Source: Felis catus (lineage: Eukaryota). From it: a stretch of DNA of 64,000 bases. This document shows positions 1-39,024 of the stretch, in pieces (the first letter of the stretch is position 1; every line of letters begins with the position of its first letter). The translations under genes were made by a program, and so were the position numbers. The stretch is from NCBI RefSeq assembly GCF_018350175.1, contig NC_058378.1, forward strand, positions 4,650,001 to 4,714,000. The letters run 5' to 3'. The notes below the pieces were generated by a model. It did not search any database. It saw only the letters and a list, made by a program, of their open reading frames with translations, and was not told where the DNA came from.

Positions 1-38
1 ACCACAGCTCAAGTCAGGCCAAGTAGTGATTCAATTAC
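1..38 (-). pseudogene. Relic coding exon (runs off the window edge) of an unidentified minus-strand gene
   Basis: Acceptor cattatcag| at 39-40. Phase 0 continues the frame of the 156-290 exon: VIESLLGLT*AV (one TGA). Intron 39-155 is 117 nt. Confidence 0.5.
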
Positions 39-155
39 CTGATAATGAATGATGAGCTGGGCCTTCGGATAGATTTCATGCTCTCCACTGACATTTTAAT
101 TACAAATGCCACAAATTGATCTATTGATACATCAGATAAAGGCATTCACACTTAC

Positions 156-290
156 CGCAAAACCATAGAGTTCTGTAAATTTGTCATGTGGTATTTCAGG
201 AGGCTGGTCTTTGTAAGTGCCTTTCATCAAGAAATGGATTTTTATGATGAAGTCCGCAGGCAAAGGCCTTATCCGTTTGACCACTAACAT
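156..290 (-). pseudogene. Relic coding exon, 135 nt, fully open
   Basis: Acceptor catttcttag| and donor |gtaagt. 45 uninterrupted codons, MLVVKRIRPLPADFIIKIHFLMKGTYKDQPPEIPHDKFTELYGFA, phase 0/0. Confidence 0.65.
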
Positions 291-569
291 CTAAGAAATG
301 TTCCCCTTATCTTGTTTATCTACAACCAATTACATAATGACAATTAAAAAATAAGACTGAAATTTGCTTACTTCTTGAATAAAGCAAATCTTTGCATTTA
401 GTACAAATAAACAAGCCTAAACCAATAAACGCAGCTCTTTCTGATAAATTTATGAGCCAGTTTCCTAAAGCAACACAGTTGCCGTTTCTGTAGACTCAGT
501 GAGGCTCTTTATAATGTTCTCGTTCGATCAGAATAAGAAGCACAAATAAAATACAATGCTTCCTGGTAC

Positions 570-721
570 CTTGAGGAGGGCTTAGTCAACACCAATGGCC
601 AACAGATTCACATGTTGCCAGTGACTCCATCTCCGAGATAAAGCTATAAACGTTTGACTAACTTCCAATGCAATATTTATGACAGTTCCCCCTTGGAAGT
701 AATTGCAATCTCCATAAATGC
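570..721 (-). pseudogene. Relic coding exon, 152 nt, one in-frame stop
   Basis: Acceptor ttcttattgtag| and donor AAG|gtacca. Phase 1/0 reads (G)IYGDCNYFQGGTVINIALEVSQTFIALSRRWSHWQHVNLLAIGVD*ALLK. Phases match both neighbours. Confidence 0.6.
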
Positions 722-878
722 CTACAATAAGAAAATATAGTTTGGGAAACATAGGTTTTTTAATGGTTCAGCAGAAGGTTAGAGTCAGAGTACTCATGAA
801 GGAGAGGAAGTCAGGTCATCCCAATCCTTTCTCTGCCTAGCAGTCATCTGCAAAGCTTAAAGATTCAGGCTGCTGTTC

Positions 879-1046
879 AGGAGCCTGGGTGGCTCAGTCG
901 GCTAAGCGTCCACCTTTAGCTGAGGTCATAATCTCGCGGTTCATGGGTTGAGCCCCACGTCAGGCTCTGTGCTGACAGCTCAGAGCCTGGAGCCTGCTTC
1001 AGATTCTGTCTCTGACTGTCTCTGCCTCTTCCGTGCTCATTTTCTC

Positions 1047-1103
<57 letters not shown>

Positions 1104-1130
1104 AATAAACATTAAAATTTTTTTTAAAAA
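879..1130 (+). mobile_element. Can-SINE (SINEC_Fc-like)
   Basis: tRNA-derived head, (CT)n, AATAAA/A tail. 14-bp TSD attcaggctgctgt at 863-876 and 1131-1144. Confidence 0.95.
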
Positions 1131-1429
1131 ATTCAGGCTGCTGTAAACACAGAAATATCTTTCTTGGTGAGAGAGTTTTCCTGTTGATCTTCTGCTTCTT
1201 AATGTCTCTGAAATCCAGCCATTATATGTGAACTGGATCAACATCACCATAAATACTGGAAACATTATGTATATAATTATATAAATACTGGCCGGGTGAG
1301 ACTATTTTCTGAGGCATGTATTTACGACACTGATTAAACAGAATACAAAATGTCACTGGCATTGATGTTTATTGTATTTCTTGAATTCAGTGTTTACTTT
1401 CCTTGGGGTTGTAACAATGGATGTGTTAC

Positions 1430-1562
1430 CAAAGATGTCGGGGGGAAAGATGTGGGTAAAACCTAATAAAAAACGAGAGCAGTGGTTGGCTAATCCTGAG
1501 TTCATAAATAAGATACTTTCCCCCAAATGGAAAATGTCATTTCCCTGGGTATTTTTCAATAA
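1430..1562 (-). pseudogene. Relic coding exon, 133 nt, fully open
   Basis: Acceptor cctcag| and donor TTG|gtaaca. Reads LLKNTQGNDIFHLGESILFMNSGLANHCSRFLLGFTHIFPPDIF(G); phase 0/1 matches the next exon. Overlaps ORF 1353..1559. Confidence 0.55.
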
Positions 1563-1845
1563 CTGAGGCTAGCTGGGGCTACCTTGCCAATGCACATTCT
1601 TAAAAAGTAAGAGGTAAGTGAATTAGAAAAGTTTTTGGGACTTCATGCTATCAAATTATAAGTTCAATGCATTTTTTTTTTCCCACTGAAGTGACTAGTT
1701 GTTACACACAGTTCATTTAAATCGAGCGGCAGGTTAAACAGTACCCATGTGACACTAAAATAGATTGACTCAAAGGGAAAAGTAAAATCAAGCAGATTGG
1801 GTTCACACACATTCGACTGACTGATAGAACTTTCCACATTCTGAC

Positions 1846-3291
1846 CTTTCCCCGAGACATAAACTCCATAAAACCCGAAGACTTGTGTGTAGAGAGAAGT
1901 GAGTGTTTTGGAGGAGAAGATGTGACTTTTTCCTCTACGACTTTCCCAGGATTAAACGCACCATTAAGAGCACAAGATTCAGCCTCTCCATCCCCGCCCT
2001 TTCAGAGAAGGATGTGATACATCCTTGCAACGGCCTCCTGCATACTGAGCAGACAAACTGGCCCGCCCCCAGGCAGTGCTGAAAAACAGACAGTCTGGTC
2101 TGGGGACCCTCCCTGAATGAGAGCCCTGCTCCTGCCTGATAACACCTCCACCCCTGTTCCCACGCTGTCTGGTCACTAGGGTGACTTGTGACTTGCAGCC
2201 ACACCACGTTCAGGCCAGTATTTCTCGAGAGGATTCAAGATCCAAAACCCTTCTCAACCCAACGGAGACCAAAGCTTTAAGTGAGTGCTTTCACTGCCTG
2301 CTTGTGATAGTCTACTAACCACCAGAATCTATAAAGTTAAAGTCTGCTAATGACTTAACCTTCCACGGGACGGTTACACTTCAGAGCACGAGTCTGACAC
2401 AGGGGAGGTCCAGGGAGACCTCTGTATTCGCTGCTAGGCTGAGAGAGAGAAAGGGTTTGCGGTCTGGATCGCCCGAATGCTCTCGAGTCTGGGACGGCAC
2501 GCCGTTGTTAACACACTGATTCAGATTCCGGCTACCAAGGTCACCGAGGGAGGAAGAACCACATGTGCAGCTCTTCAAACACCCAGGTTGCGGGGACTCT
2601 GACTCGCTGTGGTCGAGGCAGTGGTCGAAAACTCACGATTTGTTTTTAAAGCCACACGGACACTGAGGCACGGAGTTCAGTGCCACTTGGAACTGGATTC
2701 TGGACACCCCATCGTTACTGAGATCCGTTCTGGCATTACATCTCTCTCTCCTCGATGGTGAGAGTAGAACACGCAGTACATTGCTTCTTCTGTCAAAGTT
2801 TTCTTGGACACCGAGACGTATAAGCAGAGATCTTCAGAACCCGTGTGGGGTTCCGTCAGGGTTTAGATCCCAGATTTTCCGTTTCTTGGAATACTCCGCA
2901 TTGATGAAGGAGCAGCGGAAGCCCGAGATGACTGCACTCCGACACCAAAATGAGTAAGCAGGACTCACAAAAAGCATCCCCGGCCACGCCGTCGATATGG
3001 TAAAAGCAAGTTCCCTGTGGACATTTGAAAGGGTCCATGTCTCTTTCAGCCAGCGCATCCTGGGTGGGCTTCCTGTGCAAGAGTGACTGTAAGAGAGACC
3101 CTCACTGCTGGCCGACTACAGGTGCCTCCTGGACAGCGCCACACGCCTTAACGGGAGCACTTCTGCCCCTGCGATCCCAGGCTGCAGAAGGACTGTGTTT
3201 GGAGAGGACCACGTCAGGCCTAATTAAGTCTGCTTTCCATAGCCAAGGTCAACTCAGCACTGCACGGGAGTTACGGGAAATCCTAAGATTT
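1846..3291 (-). pseudogene. Large (~1.45 kb) decayed exon, probably a low-complexity/disordered region
   Basis: Acceptor ttatttacag| at 3292-3293 and donor AAG|gtcaga at 1844-1845. No recognisable repeats; CpG-richer than its flanks; several short minus ORFs. The 3' end reads ...TSSPPKHSLLSTHKSSGFMEFMSRGK in phase 0 into the 1430-1562 exon. Confidence 0.45.
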
Positions 3292-13890: not shown

Positions 13891-14279
13891 AAGAGTGCAA
13901 CACAGAGGGGATGTTAGACGATTTCTATTTTCTAAATCTACCATGAAAACGATTCTGTGATCACGATGAAAAATGAGAAAGTAAAACCACTTGCTGAAAA
14001 GAGTTTTCTATCCAGTTAAATAGGTAGGATAAAGAAAATAGTTTAAGAAAAATTAAGAAGCCAAGGGAGTTAAAGATTTCAGGGTGTTTCCAGATTTTGA
14101 CCGCCAGGGTAGCCTGGGATGACTGAGTCTAGGCGATAGAGCACTCCACTTGCTGGAGGCAGGTGTCCTGTGGAAATTAGGACAACGAACTGATCTTGAT
14201 GGGGAACCACTTGGGGCTGCACAGCACGGGCTTCCTGGGGGGGGGGGGTGCAGGATGGAGACTTCCTCTTGCAGTTACT

Positions 14280-15785
14280 CCCTAGTTAGACCCATGGAAA
14301 CCTCCGGCTGGGGTAAAGAAGATGGGGAGGAGGAGAAACAGGAGGATATGTGACAGTCAGCAGAGCAGGGGCCCTGCATCACAAAGGACACACCTCCCGA
14401 TGCACAGCCGTTAGGGATGCAACTCCCTCTGCCAAATGCTCCGCTGGGACCAACAGGTACACTAGGCCGGAGCTGAACTGCTCTTTCCATCAGTCTCTGT
14501 CTCAGATCTGTGACCCTCTGTCTGGAGACGATATTTCACTCAGCCTCTTATCCTGCCTGGACTTTTGGTTCCAGGGACAGAAGCTGTCTCTGCAAAGGAT
14601 AAATGTTTCTTTCCATCTTGCCTTTGAGATCCTGAAATCCCTGTCTGTAGATTTCACAGCTCAAGGGGTCCTTTGCTTCAGGACATCTCATCTCCTGTTG
14701 CAAGTCACGGTCCACCTTGCCAGGAAACCATCCTGCCAAGCTCCCTTTCTTTCTCTCGAAAAACTCAGTCACTTCATTTCCCTTTGTCACGAGACGCCAA
14801 ACTGCCCTTCTGATCGAGGCTTCCGTGGTCTGGACATTGTACAATACCCGGTCACATGGGCTCTGCTCTTAGTGCTGATGGTGTAGAACTGATGTTGCTC
14901 TAGACCATTATTTGACATTGCAGCGTCCTTCCTCTCCTCCACCGTCTTTTGCCTGGTCATCCACATGCTGTCCCTCCTCTGGCTCCACATTATCACTTGC
15001 GTCCTCTTCTCTCAGAAACCTGCTAATTCTTGGTTCTTGAGCCAGTGGTCCTGCAGAAACAACACCTGACTCTTCGCATGGCCAGAGACATCGGCATGGA
15101 GATGAAGAATCCTTTCAGTTGCCCACAGTACTTCTAAATGTGTTCTAGCTTCTTCTGTTTGTGTTTTAATGGATTGCTGGTTCCTGCAACATCAGGATCT
15201 TAACTGCGGTATCATACAGGTTCTTTTTCATCTGAACATCTGAGGATTTTCTTTCCCCAGTGTTTTACTATCATGTACATGATGTCTCTAATTATAGGCT
15301 TGTAACAGTCCGGGTCATCTGGCATTTTGGAGTTTATGTCATTTCCATTACAGAATAAGACACGTCGAGGATGTCTTATTCCATTTTGCTATGTCCAGCA
15401 CTGGATTGCTACTGGTATGTTCCTTACCTCCCTATTAAAAAAAAAAAAAAAAAAGCTTTTCTTTGACTGAAAATTCTGTATAAAACCAAGATAATCTTGA
15501 CCAGCTGAACAATCACACCACACTCTGTTATCTCCCACCAATATCCAGGGACAGCCTTGGTCTTTCATCATGATGTGCTTTTGCCATAAAACTCTCCGCT
15601 ATTTCCTGGGTTGTTCAACCCTACAGATCCCCGCTCGATGGGATTCCTGCCTAGTGGTTCAGTCTGCAGGAGGGACCCCTGCAGCTATCATGGCTGACTG
15701 GACCACAACACATCATGGCCATCACTCAATGGAGCTACTCGCTGAACCCAACCTGCACCAGAGAACCAAGGCTGACCGTGCCTGT
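14280..15785 (-). pseudogene. Processed pseudogene of cTAGE5/MIA2 (copy A)
   Basis: Intronless, with many stops and frameshifts. Fragments EIYRQGFQDLKGKMERNIYPLQRQLLSLE, LQDHWLKNQELA and GPSGAFGRG match remembered cTAGE5 ETYRKRAKDLEEELERTIHSYQGQIISHE, LTERLLKMKDWA and VPNTAFGRE. ATG at 15691-15689 in gccATG context. 5' UTR-like ggtgcaggttgggttc is present. Confidence 0.8.
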
Positions 15786-16297
15786 GGAGGGCTGGGTGGG
15801 CAGGAACAGAATAATAAATAATTCACACGCCCTCTCCTTTGCTCTTGGCTTTTTCTCCTCTACTTAAACTTTTTCTTCTAGGTTCCCCAATGCCCACCCC
15901 GTTCTCTGTGCATGCTGTTTCTTCTGCCTTTCCTCTTTCCTTGCCCACGGTGGGGGAGCTCAACCATATACAAAACCATGTCCTTCCTCACCCATGTTTC
16001 CTCAGCGACCATGGCAAGCCCGGCCAGGATGAGGTGCTCAGTGCTCTGTGCATGTTTATGGAAGGAATCAATGAATGAGCACCCAAATGAAGAAAGGAGA
16101 AGCAAAGCCACTACTGGTCATCCCTAAGGGGTATTACAAAATAATCTAAGTCGCTGGTTTCCTTAAGAATTTAAAACTCCTGGCAATGTAGAACAGTGGA
16201 GTACATGTGATTTAAAATGTTGAACAAATGTTTAAGATCATGTGGCTATGCAACATTTATCAAAATTTACTAGTTTGGACAACAAACTGATCCTCAA

Positions 16298-16524
16298 TTT
16301 ATTTAATTAAATTTTTAAAAATATTTATCTATTTTTGAGAGAGAGAGACACACACACACAGAGCATGAGTGGGGGAGAGAGAGAGGGAGACAGAGAATCC
16401 GAAGCAGGCTCCAGGCTCTGAGCTGTCAGCACAGAGCCAGATGTGTGGCTCGAACCTGCAAACTGTGAGATTGTGACCTGAGCTGAAGTTGGATGCTCAA
16501 CTGACCTAGCCACCCAGGCGCCCC
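16298..16524 (-). mobile_element. Can-SINE
   Basis: Full reverse-complement element; ctcaattt on both flanks. Confidence 0.95.
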
Positions 16525-16758: not shown

Positions 16759-17988
16759 TAGTACATAGTAAAACAATATCTTTTAGATTTCAGGAAGTTG
16801 GAAGACTTTAATTACAACTTCAAGGGCTGAAACAGAGTGGCCATCTCCCTCTTTCTCTCTCTTACACAGAGAAGGTAGAAATTGAAAATCAGAAAGAATG
16901 GAAAAACAAAGATATAGAAGAAAACAAATCTCTAGCTCCTAGAATCTGTGTGGGGAGGTGCAGGGATGAGCCACTGGGAACAGCCGTGGCTCTCAGTGCC
17001 ACCTGCCCTTCCGACCCCTGCACTCCCATCTCATCATGGAGGCAAGACTGAGAAAACACCCATCTAGGCTGGCCAGAGGGCTCCAGCCCAGATTGGAGCG
17101 TGGAGGTTGTGCAGGGCTGAAAAGCACAGCCTGGCATCACCACTCAGAGAAGTTTTCTGTCCAGGAGGACTGGGGACCACCCTTGTGGCTTTATTTGTGC
17201 TCCCTTCTACGAAACAATTAGTAAGATCAATTCTGAAAGAGAGAAGTGGCAGATAATGAGCTAGGTATCTATAGGAGGATTGTTGCAAAATCTGGGATGT
17301 GCCTGTACCTGCTAATGGGATGAATGAATGAATGAGTGAATGAATGATGTGGACACAGTTGTTGGATGAATCTATGTACTCGCAATGAACTCTGTGGACT
17401 CTGTAGATGCTTTAAGCCATGGTGGAAAAGCCACATGCTGCTGGCAGGTTTTGGGGAGACACAAGCAAACCCACTCTACTCAAGGAAGAGCTGTGCTCAC
17501 ACAAGCTGAGGGCCAGTTGTGGAAAAGAGTTCAGAGACAGGAGAGGCATTGTTCCCTTAACGTCTGACCTTGCCCTCCTGTGGCTCTCAGGACAGGTCAG
17601 GACGGGGCATGATGAGCTGACCTCACTGTCTATAGGGTAGACACCCCAACTGCTCTGTAGTGTCACCTGCAACCCTTGGTCATCATATGTCACAGAAGAT
17701 GTTAGGGTCATCCTACCATTTTCCAAAGTGGTGGTACCCCTTGCTTTCTCCCCAGCAGAGTAAGGCAGTTCTGGTTTCCAGTGTCTGGGCTAATTCCTGC
17801 TGTGCTCATTCTAATTGCAGCTTTTTGCCTGAGGTTGTGAGTATCATCTCACTGTGGTTCATGACTATTTCCCTGATAAGAAATGGTGCTAATTACTTTA
17901 TTGTCTTACTGAGCTTTTGTATTTTTTCCTTTGTAGGTCGTTTCAAGTCTTATGCCTACTTTTTTTTTTATTTCTTTGCAAGATATGT

Positions 17989-18184
17989 ATTTTTAATATT
18001 TATTTATTTGGAGACAGAGTGAGCAGGGGAGGGGCAGAGAGAGGGGAAAAGAGAGAATCCCAAGCAGGCTCTGTGCTCTCAGTGCAGTGCCTGACCCAGG
18101 TTTAAATCTCATAACCGTGAGATCACGACCTGAGCCAAAATCAAGAGTCGGATGCTCAACCAACTGGGCCACCCAGGTGCCCCT
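17989..18184 (-). mobile_element. Can-SINE
   Basis: Reverse-complement element ending ccaggtgcccc. Confidence 0.9.
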
Positions 18185-18255
18185 GCAATAAGTTTTATAT
18201 ATTTTAGGATAAGCCATTTCTCAGATGAATTTTATGAATATTTTCTTTTTTCTAA

Positions 18256-18470
18256 TTTTTTTAAAAATTTTAATTTATTTCTGAGAGACAGAGAGAGACA
18301 GAGTGGGTGCAGGGGAAGGGCAGACAGAGAGGGAGACACAGAATCTGAAGCAGGCTCTGGGCTCTGAGCTGTCAGCACAGAGCCCAAGGCGGGGCTCAAA
18401 CCCACTAACTGTGAGATCACGGCCTGAGCTGAAGTCAGATGCTCAACTGACTGAGCCCCAGAGGCGCCCC
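18256..18470 (-). mobile_element. Can-SINE
   Basis: Reverse-complement element; attttatg on both flanks. Confidence 0.9.
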
Positions 18471-20758
18471 ATTTTATGGATATTTTCTAACAATGTTTCT
18501 CTCATCTCATTTTCTCCAGTGGTGCCTTCTGTTGAGGAGAGTTTTCATTTTCAGTGAAAGGTAGTGCACCCATTTCTTTTTATCTTTGTTTTTGGTTTTA
18601 ATATCCTACCAAGACTTTTAGCCTACTCCAATTTCATGAGGATATGCTCCTGTTTTTTGTAGAAAGCTTATTGACGCAGCTTTTATATTCAGTCATAAAA
18701 TTGAGTTAATTTTACATGACTGTGTGGCAGAGGTCAGGATTGATTATATCTCTTCTGAGATACTGAGAAGTTTCAGCAATCTCTGTTGAAAAGACTTTGT
18801 CTTCTCCACTAAAGGTCTTTTTACATTGACTTGGAGAACCAATGTCCCATTTATAGAAACTGGGTAGATGTCTGGATTCTCTATTCCTTTTCACTGATGT
18901 ACTTCTATGTCCCGATGCCAATTCAGTATTATCTTGATTCCTGTATTTCTATACATGAAATCATGAATTTTACACATGAAATCATGTAGTATAGTCCTCC
19001 CCTAATGCATCCTATATGAATTATGGAGTAAGCTGGTAATTTCTCTGGGGTTATAAATAACATTGAGTTGAAACTAGAGACTACTGTGTTGAGAATTGAC
19101 ATTGAACCATATTGATTCTTCTGTGTTCTAAATTATTATTTGCTAAAATATAGAAGTATAAATCGATTGTTGTACATTGTCCTTGTACCCTCTGACCTTG
19201 CTAGATATAAGGATTAGTTCTAGTACTCTTAAAAAAGGATTCCTTAGAACTTCTCCATATCAACTCATACCTTTGGTGAATAGAAGTTTTTCTTCTTCCT
19301 TCCAACATTCTCACTCATTTTCTCTTTCCTTTACCATATTGCACATACTGGATCCCATACCCAACACTGAATAGAGGTGGGAAGAGCTGATTTCTTGGCC
19401 TTATTATCAATCACAGGCACAAAATTTTTCTATGTGTCACCAATAACATTAGCCTAAGTTTCTTAACAAACATATTTTATTACATGGAGGAAATTGTCCT
19501 CTATTCCTAATTTGCTGAGATTTTTAAAAAAAAATAATGAATGGATCATAAATTTTGTCACTGGTTTTTCAGAATCTATTGAAATGATTCTTTTCTCTCT
19601 CTCCCTGATTAAGTGAATATATTGATTTCAAAGTGTGACATGCAAATGTTAACTTGCATTGATGCTATTATAAATGCCACTTGGTCATGATATTCTGTAT
19701 TTGTCATATGCTGCTAAATCAATATATTTTCTTATGAATTTTTTTGACCATGATCATGAAGCACATTGGTCTATAATTCTGCTTTTTACACTGTCTTTGA
19801 CATTGGGTATCAGGAAATACTGGTGTCCCACAATTTATCACCAACTCTTCCCTTTTCCTCTGTGTTCTGAAAGACTTGGTGTAAGATTGTTTCTTCCTTC
19901 AGACTGATAGAATTCACCGGAAAGTCACCTGACCTTGAGGTTGACTTTATGGAGAAGATTTTCAATTGGATGTGTCATTTTGGAAACTGGAAAATTTTAA
20001 TATTTATTGAGTATTGGGATATTTTCTTGGCTGAACAACTGCACACTCAGAGACCTGGATCCTAGCACTTTCTTTCTACAGGTATCACCTCCAGGATCTG
20101 CCTCATTTGAATGACTCTGCAGTGCCTTCCATGAAGTGCTTTCTTAGGAATAATTTGTCCAGACTTAATCACTGTTATAGGCGGTTAGGTTAGACTGATC
20201 AATCACAGCCAGCAGGTATAACTCCCCAGAGCATCATGGAACAGAAGAGAAAGGATCCCTTCCATTCCAGCACCACTCTCATGCCCTAGTGAGGTGCAGG
20301 GGACAGGGCTCGACTTCTCCTTCATAAGGATTTAAATTCCACCCCCACTCCCCCCACCCCCACCTCTGGTCTTGGTTGGCAAACTTTGCAGACAGAGATG
20401 GTGAGGAGCCCAGTGGGGCCATCCTGGGAGGTATCCCACAAAACCTTGTGTCCTTCGTACTTGCCCTTGGTAATCCAGGGAGGTCCTCACACTTGTCCAA
20501 AAGAAACAGGGGCTCAGATCTCATCCTAGGAGAAAGAAGAACCCTCCTTTTTATGCATTTCTAGGATTTAGCCCACAGACAGACAGACAGACATGAAGGC
20601 TGAGTTTGAAAGAGCAGACCCATGAGAGAGGCCAGGGAGGCCTGGCTCGCCATGACCCCCATCATGTGCACAGCCTGTACGCATAGTGCCAAGAGCCTAT
20701 GTTTTTTGAATATATTGAAAAAAAAGGGAAAAGAGAAAAATTGAAGCACCTGGTGTAT

Positions 20759-22389: not shown

Positions 22390-25300
22390 TTGAGATCATG
22401 AAGGAGTTTACACCTTTGTCTTATAATGCTGATGATAGAAACGCTGACAGAGAAAATACCTTCCTATTTCAAATTTCTTTGTGGGCCAAACTGCTCATAG
22501 ATAATACCACATTGTTGAAAGAACAGTAGGCTAACTCTTCAAATAAAAAACCCACTACTTATATTGTCTAGAGAGGATCATACAATGAGATAACATAATC
22601 TCAGTTTTCCAAATCTATCCCAAAATGTATACTACTATCAAGATGCAAGACGAAAGTAAATCCACTTGCATAAAAAGAGATTTCTACCCTAAAAATAAGT
22701 GTAAGGAGAAGTCAAAGATATTCTGAAGATAAAATAAGAAATGATTATTGTGATGTTTCAGGATTTTGACTGCTAATGTTGCATGGAGACTGAATGAAGC
22801 CAAGAGGTGATACATGTCCATTTTCTGGGTGGCAGTGTCCAGGAAAGAAAAACAAAAGGCCACTGCAGACGAAAAAGAAGACAACTGGGCTTTGGGGAGA
22901 AGGTGATTTATGTGGGTGCGTGCAGCCTTCCTGAATGAGGCTGGGGAAGAGGACACTTCCCATGGAGACTCACAGAAGACCTCTCATTGGGGAAGAGAGG
23001 AGGAGAACAAAATGAAGGAGATGGAGGGAGAGAAGGAGTGAAAGAGGTAGTTAAGTCCCATCTCAAAGGAAGTGGCATCCCATGCACAGAGAGCAGGGAA
23101 GCAATTGTTCTCGCCAAATGCTCCACTGGGGTCACCGATTACACGAGAATCCACTTCCAGAAGCTGGAGTTGAATCACTCTTCCACTTCTTCTTTGTCTC
23201 AGGTCTTCGCCTCTTGTCTGGTGACGATGAATTTTGTTCAGCCTTCCCAGCTCTCCAGCAGACATCAGGAGCTCTTCCTTCCAGGATCAGAATCTGCCAC
23301 AGATGAGAAGAAATGTTTCTCTCCAGCTGTAATTCAAGACCTTGGAATTGCTTTTGGTAGGTGTCTGCCTCTTCAGTTTCAAGACTTATTAGGCCGCCGG
23401 CTTCAGAACTTCCCACCTCCTGCTAAGGTCAAGTCTGCCTTGACAGGTAATACCCCCAGATGCTCCATTTCTCTTTGGTGATGTAGTTCATTCACTTCAT
23501 TTCCTTTTTCCTCAAAATATTGCTCCTCCCTTTCCATGGAGGCTTCTTGGGTCAGGCACCTGTGTGATGACCTGTCAGGTGGGCTCTCTTCTTCCCTTCT
23601 TTGGCAATATTGCCGTGGCACTGCTTTTTCTAACCCGAATGTTTAAGTGCACGCTTGATGGTGCAGCATACTTGGTTTCCTCCTGAATCCCATTTCCTGG
23701 TCCTCAACATGCTCTCCATTCCCTGGTTCCCCTAATTCCCTATTCTCATCCATGTCCCCACCTTCCAGGGAAACTGCCATTTCTTCGATCCTAAGCCAAT
23801 CTTCCTACAGAGATCATGTCTGACACTTCACGCAGGCCATGGAGATCATGGCGGGGACCTTGAGTCTCTTTTCAGCTGCTGGAAGATGTTTTGAGGATGT
23901 ATTAGCTTCTCGTGCTCGTGTTCAACAGCTTTCTCTTCTTGGTGTGGAGGCTGAATCCTTCTTGCTGTCTCAGACACAGGCTGCTCTTGGTCTGAACGCG
24001 GAGGTCTTTCCCTTGCCCTGTGCCTTACCATAATGCATACGACGTTCCTTCTTGCAGGTTTGGACACATCCAGGTCATCAGCTCCTCTTGAGTTTTCATC
24101 TTCCTCCAAACCTAGGATGAGACTTGTTAAGAGTGTCACGTTTCACTGCGGCTCGTGCAGAACTGCTCCCAGCAGGCCCCTCATCTCCCTCTGCAGAAAG
24201 CCTTTCTTTGAATGACCGTACAATTCCGCCTAAAAGCTCGAGAACTGTGAATACTTGAACTATTGCAGCGTGATCCAGCATCTCCCACTGATAGCCAGGG
24301 ACAGTGAGACTTGAGCTCATACTGTCAGGGGCTTGTGGCAGGAAATGCTCCAGCGTCTCCTGGGCTTGGCAAAGGCACACATCCCCAGCAGGACGAAGCT
24401 CCCCCACGGTGGCCCGGTCTGACACAGAGGTGCCCAGGGCCACCACGGCCAGCTGGACCACACCACCCCATGGAGAAGTCTGCTCTGGGTTCCATCCGGA
24501 ACCAAACCTGCACCAGGCCACCGGGGCAGGCCGTGCCTTCTGAGGGTCAGGCAGGTAGTCCCAAAGCGATGAAGAGCTCGACTCTGCCCTGGGCTCTTCC
24601 TTTCCTCACTTAAGCTTCTCCTTACGTGGCCCACAGAGGCCTATTGAATCCATTATGCACAATGTTCTCTCAGTCCAGAAAGCCCCTCTTTCCACTGCCC
24701 ACAAATGGGGCACACACCCGTCTTGGAACCACTCTTTTCTCCCCCTCAAGTGGCCCCAGTGCATGAAACAGGGCCTGGCCATGATCTTTCATGCCTGTGC
24801 GTGTTTGTGGAAGTGATCTTTGAGGGCACATTTGAATGAAGGAAGGACAAAGCTATTCTTAATTATGTCACACTTAGTGCTCTGCTGAGCAGCAGATAAT
24901 CCATTAGGTGGTTTAATTCTTGTGGATGTAGACTAGCAGAGTACTGTTATTACAAAGGCTGAACGAATTTTTAATATCGGACAACCATGGCACGTTCCTC
25001 AGAATTCACCATTTTAAACTACAAAGAGATCCTCAAATTGCTTTGAAAGACAAAATACTGCACTGGGGATCATCTTCTACAATCCCCCTTTTTAAAAAAA
25101 ATTAGAAAGAAGTAACAAAATCTGAAGTAAAAGCAACGACTGCCTGGGAAATTCAGAGATGTAAATAGCCTGTAGATCCAGTGAGCCACCAAATAAAATT
25201 CTGCACAAGATGTGGAAAGTACAAACAATGAACACGCTAACCATTACGGTCTGTAGGACAAAGCCAATTCTATTCAAGGAGGAAAATCCACATTATTTAA

Positions 25301-27130
25301 CACTGAAGAACTCAAACAAGGAAGGAGAATGAGAAAGCGAATCGAACAGCTGAAGCGTTTCTAACAACGTTAGATATTCACCAGGAAACATAGATGAATC
25401 AGAGTGAGAGGCACAGGAAAGGCTAGCCCTGAACGTCTCAGAGCTCTGAAAATCAGAAGACGGATGCACAACTCCAAGAGCTTGTCACAGGGAAAGTATG
25501 TTTCCTTTCCTTACTGTAGTTTTAAACACTGAATGTGGAAGTACGGAATTGAAAACTAGGAAGAGCTGAAAACCCAAAGACAGAGAAAGCAAGTCTTAAG
25601 TCTTCCCTCAGAACCGTGCAGGACGTGGGCAGACCAGGAAGTGGCGGCTCCCGGGCCACAGACCCTCGTTCCCCACTCTCACTGCCACCTGTCGCCAGCC
25701 CCCCTGCCACCCCAGGTGAACAGCACATCGCCCGGGACTTGGCCACACATGTGGCCCGTCCCAGAGAGGGGAGTCAGACATTGCCACTGAGGCCACTCAG
25801 GTGGGCTGGAGTTGGGAGGGGACTCCAGGTGGTACAGGGTGAGGTGGTCAGACGGGGCAGCACCCAGATGGGTTTTCTCAACCGAGGGCTCAGGGATGGT
25901 GTGTTCGGCCTTGTTTACATTATTTGGTATCCAGAAAAACTTGATAAATGTGATGATAAAAGGGTAGAATGACGGCTTCTGGATTCCCTTTCAAGGAAAA
26001 CTGTTATCAGCAATGAGGCAAGCATAGACCTTCCTTCTGGGAGGTAGCTGGTAGTGTCTGTGTAATGGATGAATAAACGAGAGAATGAGCGACGCAGGCA
26101 TGAGGCCATTTTTGGCCAATCCATGGTGATGCACAGTGAACTCTGTGGACTCTGCAAGTCGTTCCCATAAGTGAAGCTTAAAATCATGGTGGAAAAGCCA
26201 CATGCTTCCAGAAATTTTCAGGAGACAAGTGAGGCAACTCCACTTACTCTGTTCATGAGAGCAGCGAGCCCCATGTGCAGACGTGGGAGTGGAAGCTCAG
26301 AGAGAGGAGAGGCATTGCCCCCTAAACCACTGAGGCTCGCAGGACACATCAGGATGGGCTGACCCCACCAATCTGGGGGGCGTCCCTCTCTGCCACATCC
26401 TCCAGCCCCTGATCCCCAGAGGCCAAATAAGATGTTATGGCCAAAAAAGATTTTACCCTTTTCCAAAGTCAGGGTACCTATCTGCTTTATCCCCGGCAGA
26501 GTACGACAGCCCCGTTTCCTCATGTCTGTGCTGGTCCCTGTTGTGTCCAGCTGTGTCAACTGTAGCCTTTGTCCCAGAGGTGTGGGTCCTAGATCATGGT
26601 GGTCTTCCTTGGTGTTTCCCCAATGAACCATGAGGCCGACCACTTTGTCGCGTGTTTATCGACACCTGTAATCCTTCCTCAGTGCGTGTTCAAGTCTTTA
26701 GCCCATTTTTGTTATTTCTCTGCATGTTTATTGGAGAGTTGTAAGAATTTTTATATATACTAGCGAAAACTCTTTTCTCAGGTAAATTTTACAAATATAT
26801 TCTAACAATTTGTGGCTTATCTCCTCATTTCTTACTGCTGCCTTTGGGTGAGCAGAGTTTTCACTCTTGAGGACAAGTCATCTATCCATTTATCCACTTT
26901 TTCCCTTTTTTCTTTATGGATTTATTATACTTGGGACATTTTTGCCAACTCCAAATTCATGAAGGTACTCTCCTGTTTCCTTATAAAACCTCATTGACTT
27001 AGCTTTTATATTTTGGTCTTATATCAATCTTAATTTTTGGTGATAATGTGTGACAGAGTCCAATATGGATTATCTCTCTTCATATATACCCAGCATTTTC
27101 AGCAATATTTGCTCAAGATCTTTTTTCATT
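22390..27130. repeat. Ancient tandem duplication, copy B (paralogous to ~13430-18780)
   Basis: See copy A. Also acaactccaagagct (~25468) matches acaacttcaagggct (~16814), and ctctcactgccacctg (~25676) matches ctctcagtgccacctg (~16990). Confidence 0.85.
23040..24540 (-). pseudogene. Processed pseudogene of cTAGE5/MIA2 (copy B)
   Basis: Intronless. PDSMSSSLTVPGYQWEMLDHAAIVQVFTVLELLGGIVRSFKERL resembles cTAGE5 [77 protein letters not shown] resembles [52 protein letters not shown] resembles ELLEKDPYALDVPNTAFGR. The start codon has become GTG (24446-24444), and there are multiple frameshifts and stops. Confidence 0.88.
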
Positions 27131-27384
27131 TCCCATTTCCATATGTGGAACTTCAAATAATCATTCTGTGTATAATGGTACTTATATTCCCTTACAATGT
27201 GCACTNNNNNNNNNNNNNNNNNNNNNNNNNNNNNNNNNNNNNNNNNNNNNNNNNNNNNNNNNNNNNNNNNNNNNNNNNNNNNNNNNNNNNNNNNNNNNNN
27301 NNNNNNNNNNNNNNNNNNNNNNNNNNNNNNNNNNNNNNNNNNNNNNNNNNNNNNNNNNNNNNNNNNNNNNNNNNNNNNNNNNNN

Positions 27385-38199: not shown

Positions 38200-38760
38200 A
38201 CGGTTCAAGTCCTTGCGGGCACTTGGACTCTGTGCTGTTGCGCGCGTGGTAGGGGGATCCCCACGACAGCCCGTCCGCGCCTTGCCGCCCGCGAGCCGCT
38301 CGTCACACGGACCTGGAGTCCGACGCCCTTCCCTTTGGGTCCGTGGGCCCACAGGACTCGGAGGAAGTCGGTTCCAGGACTCGCGGGGCTGGCCCTGAGG
38401 AACGTGGCAGCGTCCGCCCGCGCGTGTGGGGAGCTCCAGTTCCGGAGGAAGCGACTCCCCGGCTGAGCAACGCACCTCTCCTGAGACTCTCCTGCCGGGA
38501 GCCAGCCCGGGCCGGCCTCGCCGAGCAAACACGAGCGGGAGCGGAAGCGGAAGCGGAAGCGACCGGCCGGCCCTCGTCTGTTGCCGTCGCCTAGCCTTCG
38601 GCACGCGCCGTGGCGCCGTGAAAACGCCTTGTTACCTGTCACGCGGAGTCGGGCCCCCAGATGACCCGGCCCGGCTGCGTCTGTCTGCTACCACACGACA
38701 GACTCGGCGCGGTAAGTGCCCGACCCCCCCCCCCACCTCCTCCCCAGTCCACGGAAACCT
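38200..38760. promoter_or_regulatory. CpG-island promoter with three tandem ETS/GABP sites
   Basis: Dense, undepleted CpG. gcggaagcggaagcggaagcg at 38541-38561. Consensus donor GCG|gtaagt at 38711/38712. Confidence 0.85.
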
Positions 38761-39024
38761 GAGAAGCGCTGAGAAACTAACCGCCAGCTTGTGGGGTGAT
38801 TTTGGAAACGGCAGGCAACCAAGATAACATATGATAATTGCTATACGAAAAATAATCCAAACTCACGAAAGAAGACAAGACTAACTTTGTGGGAAATGGG
38901 GACTTTCTTTCAAGAAGGCATTTTGGTGAGGTCTTGATGGATAAGAAAACACACTGAGGACATCTATGGGGGCAGAAGTATAATACGGAATATCTGGGGG
39001 AGGCTTACTATCAAGAGTATTTTA

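Follow-up and report, generated by a model that had tools for sequence, protein, structure and literature searches.

What is the origin of the exon-like pieces that follow one another in matching phases at one end of a gene-poor stretch of the cat genome, and do they belong to a gene that can still be recognized? The window, by which we mean the whole stretch of DNA analysed, comprises 64,000 nucleotides (G000:C22:4650001-4714000) of a 2.4-Gb genome. The same contig carries a PCDH15-type domain (3.35 Mb), a Dickkopf domain (5.04 Mb) and a neutral ceramidase (6.6 Mb); from these neighbouring families we take the genes to be PCDH15, DKK1 and ASAH2. The locus is flanked by the PCDH15-like and DKK1-like genes in an interval that is otherwise gene-poor and contains repeats that are presumably SINE-like. 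Searches of the literature on the neighbouring genes turned up no paper. No cellular gene family was matched among the open reading frames (ORFs) scanned against Pfam: the 233 of 235 window ORFs of at least 70 amino acids gave only two sub-threshold matches, and the 150 of 268 listed flank ORFs included three with matches, two of LINE type and one tandem repeat.

The reading that best fits the data, with a probability of about 0.6, is that the stretch is a unitary pseudogene, the decayed 3' part of an unnamed gene that was single-copy and contained introns. The first-pass annotation of this DNA had likewise proposed a relic of an uncharacterised multi-exon gene, and that part of the proposal stands as the best reading; the chain of exons as it was drawn falls within chance, and its near-intactness is unsupported. 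The verdict of a pseudogene rests on one well-supported exon, which extends from 721 to either 612 or 570.

The chain runs entirely on the minus strand. It consists of a long block at 1846-3291 (1446 nt), a second exon at 1430-1562 (133 nt), the exon at 570-721 (152 nt, with an acceptor at 721 and a donor at 570 as annotated or at 612), a candidate exon at 156-290 (135 nt, 45 open codons, phase 0-0) and, at 1-38, the beginning (5') of a candidate exon of 104 nt, the other 66 nt of which lie beyond the window, up to G000:C22:4649935. A candidate last exon (phase 2, 78 open codons) lies outside the window on the same strand, at C22:4649113-4648876. The coordinates, the phases (0, 1, 0, 0) and the peptide of the five-piece chain could all be reproduced; AG precedes each of the five pieces, and GT follows all four that end inside the window. 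The count of two stops from 1562 onward was also confirmed, in 152 codons. One is a TGA at 11-9, just where it had been placed, and the other is a TAA at 584-582, which had been given as about 580-582. The introns between the four short pieces measure 708, 279 and 117 nt, each a multiple of three, and the pieces accordingly lie in a single genomic frame.

The splice sites of the chain are uneven in quality when scored with rough matrices. In order along the chain and including the candidate last exon, the acceptors score 2.7, -1.9, 7.0, -2.7, 3.6 and 4.5 bits; for the donors the values are 2.9, 0.0, 0.4, 5.4 and 2.9 bits. Two of the acceptors, at 1562 and at 290, are poor, their scores of -1.9 and -2.7 bits reaching only the 72nd and 67th percentiles of all AG dinucleotides. 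Exon 156-290 combines its poor acceptor with a strong donor (5.4 bits), and the 104-nt exon, with an acceptor of 3.6 and a donor of 2.9 bits, is followed by the 4.5-bit acceptor of the candidate last exon.

One might ask whether such a chain needs a gene at all. Ordinary intergenic DNA, kept neutrally across mammals, could yield an open chain when splice sites are freely chosen, and in its favour an equal or better four-exon phase-matched chain was found in 105 of 282 flanking 1.9-kb pieces (both strands). The number rose to 212 of 282 when micro-exons were allowed (again with the rough matrices), and in an earlier version of the test 66 of 282 such pieces equalled the best chain found at the locus. 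In this test the annotated five-exon chain does not rise above chance, and the weakness of two acceptors and two donors points in the same direction. A point in favour of the chain is that, among 2117 contiguous GC-matched pieces of 522 nt, only 2.7% have a frame with two stops or fewer, but the ends of these pieces were not freely chosen. Codon usage in the spliced frame falls between the null and real exons (p 0.11, not significant).

Exon 570-721 has a different standing. Its acceptor at 721 is the strongest of the region (7.0 bits, top percentile), and a full HMMER search with the segment 585-719 against 1.84 billion representatives (E 0.001; relatives below about 50% identity were probably missed) returned five proteins. 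Three of them are unnamed ORF calls, P0002, P0003 and P0005, with E values of 5e-10 to 2e-6; the other two are long repetitive proteins, which aligned over only 15-17 residues and were set aside. The three ORF calls are short and come from contigs of 1.8-3.7 kb in other genomes. Because they continue into the intron in register, they are genomic orthologues and not products of mRNA. In both of the two relatives that cover the acceptor at 721, the residues are compatible with an AG at that site, the DNA being deduced from the peptides.

The changes that separate the cat exon from these relatives are unevenly distributed over the codon. Second positions carry a share of 0.24 of the inferred changes, whereas neutral simulations give 0.45-0.48 (p 0.003-0.011, six settings); the share is 0.22 for 686-612 (p 0.011) and 0.27 for 611-585 (p 0.09). 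The intron control gave 0.50 (p 0.62), as expected of neutral sequence. The test was post hoc and covered 34 codons, and its p-values are optimistic for that reason and because the codons were inferred and the relatives chosen by protein score. The first-pass annotation had staked its gene on codon-periodic substitution and conserved splice sites, and codon periodicity and one kept splice site were found for exon 570-721, the only exon with outside support. From this post hoc test, the exon appears to carry a trace of former coding constraint.

Other measures are less telling. Identity to the relatives is alike in the exon (0.65-0.68, or 22-23 of 34 residues) and in the intron (0.57, or 12 of 21, and 0.69, or 11 of 16), and the excess of conservative replacements in the exon is not significant (p 0.056-0.47 per relative, 0.06-0.20 pooled). 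Nearly equal conservation of intron and exon is what neutral persistence of intergenic DNA would produce. Such persistence does not account for the sparing of second positions in the exon and not in the intron control, nor for a top-percentile acceptor that is apparently kept in both relatives covering it. We therefore regard chance as an unlikely explanation, though one to be taken seriously.

As applied to inferred codons, the codon-position test singles out either the annotated frame or the antisense frame that is in register with it, and it excludes the second frame of the spliced chain. That second frame, which has six stops and whose third position would be the least-changing one, was dropped. 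The antisense alternative supposes that the plus strand was the coding strand and that the TAA shared with the relatives (see below) is a conserved leucine codon. Second positions coincide on the two strands, the first positions of the annotated frame change most (17.3 of 27 changes), and the plus-strand frame over 570-719 has a single stop; even so, the strong acceptor and the donors lie on the minus strand, about half of the changes (counted by hand) would alter the plus-strand residue, and no Pfam match was found for it. Coding on the plus strand is hardly credible.

Comparison with the three relatives changes the view of both the TAA and the reading frame. P0002, P0003 and P0005 all end at the column just before the TAA at 584-582, so that this appears to be a stop shared with all three and therefore probably not a lesion of the cat lineage. 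Rather than a new lesion, the TAA is likely either intronic, behind a donor at 612, or the old true end of the protein. The donor at 612 scores 1.4 bits versus 0.4 bits for that at 570, and its use would place the TAA in the intron. Twelve of the 13 invariant columns fall in the 25 codons before 612 and one in the nine codons after it (Fisher p 0.11).

The frame from 1562 onward had been described as free of frameshifts, which the relatives do not confirm: two of the three, P0003 and P0005, switch frame against the window near 686-699 and are one base longer. P0002 keeps the frame of the window, and its in-register reading needs six changes in the 686-699 tract; a separate one-base loss would explain it better. 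The ancestral exon was probably the form with one more base, whose length is a multiple of three; in the window, exon 570-721 has probably lost one base near 686-699 and is frameshifted. If exon 570-721 was in phase 0-0, the exon before it has to end in phase 0. A candidate 33-nt exon at 1430-1462 on the minus strand (phase 0-0; donor 0.0 bits) appears to fit better than 1430-1562, since it shares the same donor and has an acceptor of 5.2 instead of -1.9 bits; none of the relatives covers it. The phase-1 junction made by 1430-1562 is probably an artefact. With a shared TAA, a probable one-base loss and a junction of this kind, the description of the chain as nearly intact is not supported.

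The same relatives raise the possibility that the gene is dead in the cat and alive, though unannotated, in some other mammals, with P0003 and P0005 coming from such lineages and the TAA being intronic or a true stop. P0005 has, in phase 0, no stop anywhere in the exon, and P0003 is open from the third codon; the signal of constraint would mean that the gene still functioned once the lineages had separated. However, ORF calls are open by construction, and exon 156-290 lacks a relative, none having been found in protein word-index searches or a metagenome scan. In addition, no long homologue or full-length protein turned up among the 1.84 billion representatives at E 0.001, although a match of 63% identity over 38 residues was detectable in the HMMER search. 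The intact vertebrate copy envisaged in the first-pass annotation was not found in the protein searches, which are weak for distant relatives. A living gene in other mammals seems distinctly unlikely. We are as doubtful of a vertebrate gene, missed by annotation and located between PCDH15 and DKK1, that is dead in cats and open in other mammals and that encodes a domain without a match in Pfam, the PDB or the Atlas; its TAA would mark either intronic sequence or an old truncation by which the protein became shorter without being lost.

Block 1846-3291 had been interpreted as a long exon encoding a disordered region, but no coding signal could be detected in it. The block is 52% GC with 57 CpG, its three frames contain 19, 15 and 13 stops, and only the last 50 or so codons of the annotated frame are open. 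Disruptions are not fewer than in Markov controls (9 versus a null mean of 9.4, with 266 of 500 controls as good), and the codon path was equalled by 25 of 100 controls. A long exon without coding signal counts in favour of chance.

Residual coding signal was observed elsewhere in the window. The minus strand of 22950-24650 has a path score of -20.6, against a null of -71 +/- 11, that was equalled by none of 100 controls. With two stops and five shifts, this segment is better preserved than the long block; its appearance is that of one long exon, now decayed, from a protein that was charged and in part coiled-coil. It gave no match to Pfam, the PDB or SPATA31, and no link to the five-exon chain was found. 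The window also contains an old tandem duplication, in which 14057-16300 pairs with 22796-25039 and 17291-18807 with 26036-27133 at the same spacing and with 58-69% identity. A DNA search revealed no further long copies, and substitutions between the copies show no codon periodicity (p 0.93 and 0.89).

Several features of the wider locus were noted in passing. The interval at about 4.5-5.0 Mb of G000:C22, where MBL2 would be expected from synteny, contains no C-type lectin exon at E 1e-10, and three collectin-type exons are found at 39.6 Mb. MBL2 may have been lost from this interval; a literature search found no paper on its absence. At 38200-38800 of the window there is a CpG island (observed/expected 0.96) with three ETS-like motifs in tandem; a donor on the plus strand is situated near 38711. 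No coding exon was found downstream when one was looked for, and a non-coding RNA may have its promoter in this island. A second CpG island, at L016:6000-8000 (G000:C22:4770000-4772000), contains short tandem repeats and has no Pfam-matched ORF. An ordinary, young LINE-1-like element, almost complete in length and with long open frames, spans L023 and L024 (G000:C22:4528000-4534000).

No second copy of the pseudogene proposed for the five-piece stretch, and no parent of it, was found in the genome. DNA searches gave a single match for the region, as did a protein search with exon 585-719, and the long block is single copy; exon 156-290 gave one further genomic match, at E 0.23 and with two stops. 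The disabling lesions are the TGA at 11-9, the 13-19 stops in each frame of the long block and the one-base difference to two of the three relatives. The words of the region are 97-99% present in 14 sequencing runs, with five flagged as possible sources. Two unspliced contigs from run X16 repeat the short form of the exon and both stops unchanged, which argues that the lesions are not assembly errors. Run X20 gave no contig, and runs X18-X20 contain a small share of the region's words and provide no evidence. Raw RNA runs X24 and X21, whose tissues are unknown, yielded no reads in a check of 951 bases that left out exon 1430-1562 and the long block (about 2 and about 1 in 100 of each run were read). 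The locus probably makes no protein in the cat genome.

The old protein cannot be named. Nothing exceeded the Pfam cut-off for the chain exons, the frames or the relatives; the best match was UGSC on the candidate last exon (E 0.0014; 19.2 bits versus a cut-off of 25). Sequence searches of the PDB gave no match for exon 156-290 and best E values of 0.45 for the read-through, 0.23 for P0005 and 0.47 for the profile. The ESM Atlas provided no usable match, only one unnamed cluster whose score of 0.76 is at chance level. Word-index protein searches and two metagenome scans found no homologue; the word-index searches are weak, one of them having missed P0002 even though it is within the length range. 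This lack of a family match is also consistent with chance. A globular domain had been predicted from the short exons and is not borne out by these searches, and the only fold obtained, an AlphaFold model of the 44 residues of P0003 (pTM 0.45), is a single helix.

Three named families were considered. A SPATA31/FAM75 identity failed the profile tests. Ankyrin-repeat proteins (PF12796) were suggested by eye, and P0005 matches a designed ankyrin protein in the PDB (the E 0.23 match), but their 33-residue repeat is not found: a profile built from 30 ankyrin loci scored below 0 bits on every frame and relative, and the family was rejected. The third candidate is an extended Tudor domain (PF00567) of the germ-line piRNA-pathway type, with its core split over 570-721 and 156-290. 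The idea came from a loose resemblance, by eye, to known motifs and to Tudor repeats of this genome that we take to be TDRD6- and TDRD15-like. Against a home-made Tudor profile, P0005 itself reached 3.5 bits and a reading based on it 1.0 bit (equalled by 3 of 300 shuffles). The best pairwise match is in the expected register, but with p 0.81. The window's own frames score below 0, the best of 396 splice variants reaches 1.5 bits (equalled by 42 of 120 controls), and the hhalign probability is 0.14%. No profile, pairwise or profile-profile match is significant, and the test had power: 10 of 11 true Tudor exon pieces scored 15-65 bits when intact and still 6-38 bits once 15% decay had been simulated, the one miss meaning that one subtype could escape. 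A Tudor protein is thus very unlikely.

If the pseudogene reading is correct, the history of the locus might be as follows. The exon at 721 would have coded for protein on some branches after the sampled genomes split. In its ancestral form it would have been one base longer, a multiple of three in phase 0-0, and it probably joined the 33-nt exon upstream and 156-290 downstream. The shared TAA would have been located in the intron behind donor 612 or would have marked the true end of the protein. Death in the cat lineage would then have involved the loss of one base from the exon, the TGA in the 104-nt exon and the full decay of the long block upstream.

Such a history would resemble that of mammalian unitary pseudogenes and "genes with lost coding potential", as described in two studies (PMC5577775, PMC6886504): the cat locus is single copy, probably intron-containing and disabled, with a trace of codon constraint and a place in a gene-poor interval. 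It differs in that theirs have a known intact orthologue, and none was found for the cat locus. DKK1, MBL2 and PCDH15 are not named in the supplementary files searched of either study, and a search of the candidate list of the latter gave no chr10 row for the presumed human coordinate range. The lost-gene table of PMC5577775 gives species gene ids only, and it could still include the orthologue.

The locus illustrates how readily chance alone produces phase-matched chains, and how the loss of one base can give a false junction the look of being in frame. If the pseudogene reading is true, the locus would count as a further, so far unlisted, gene loss in a gene-poor region, and it would hint at a vertebrate gene possibly missed by annotation. 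An intact copy, if found, would raise the importance of the locus, because the domain belongs to no named family.
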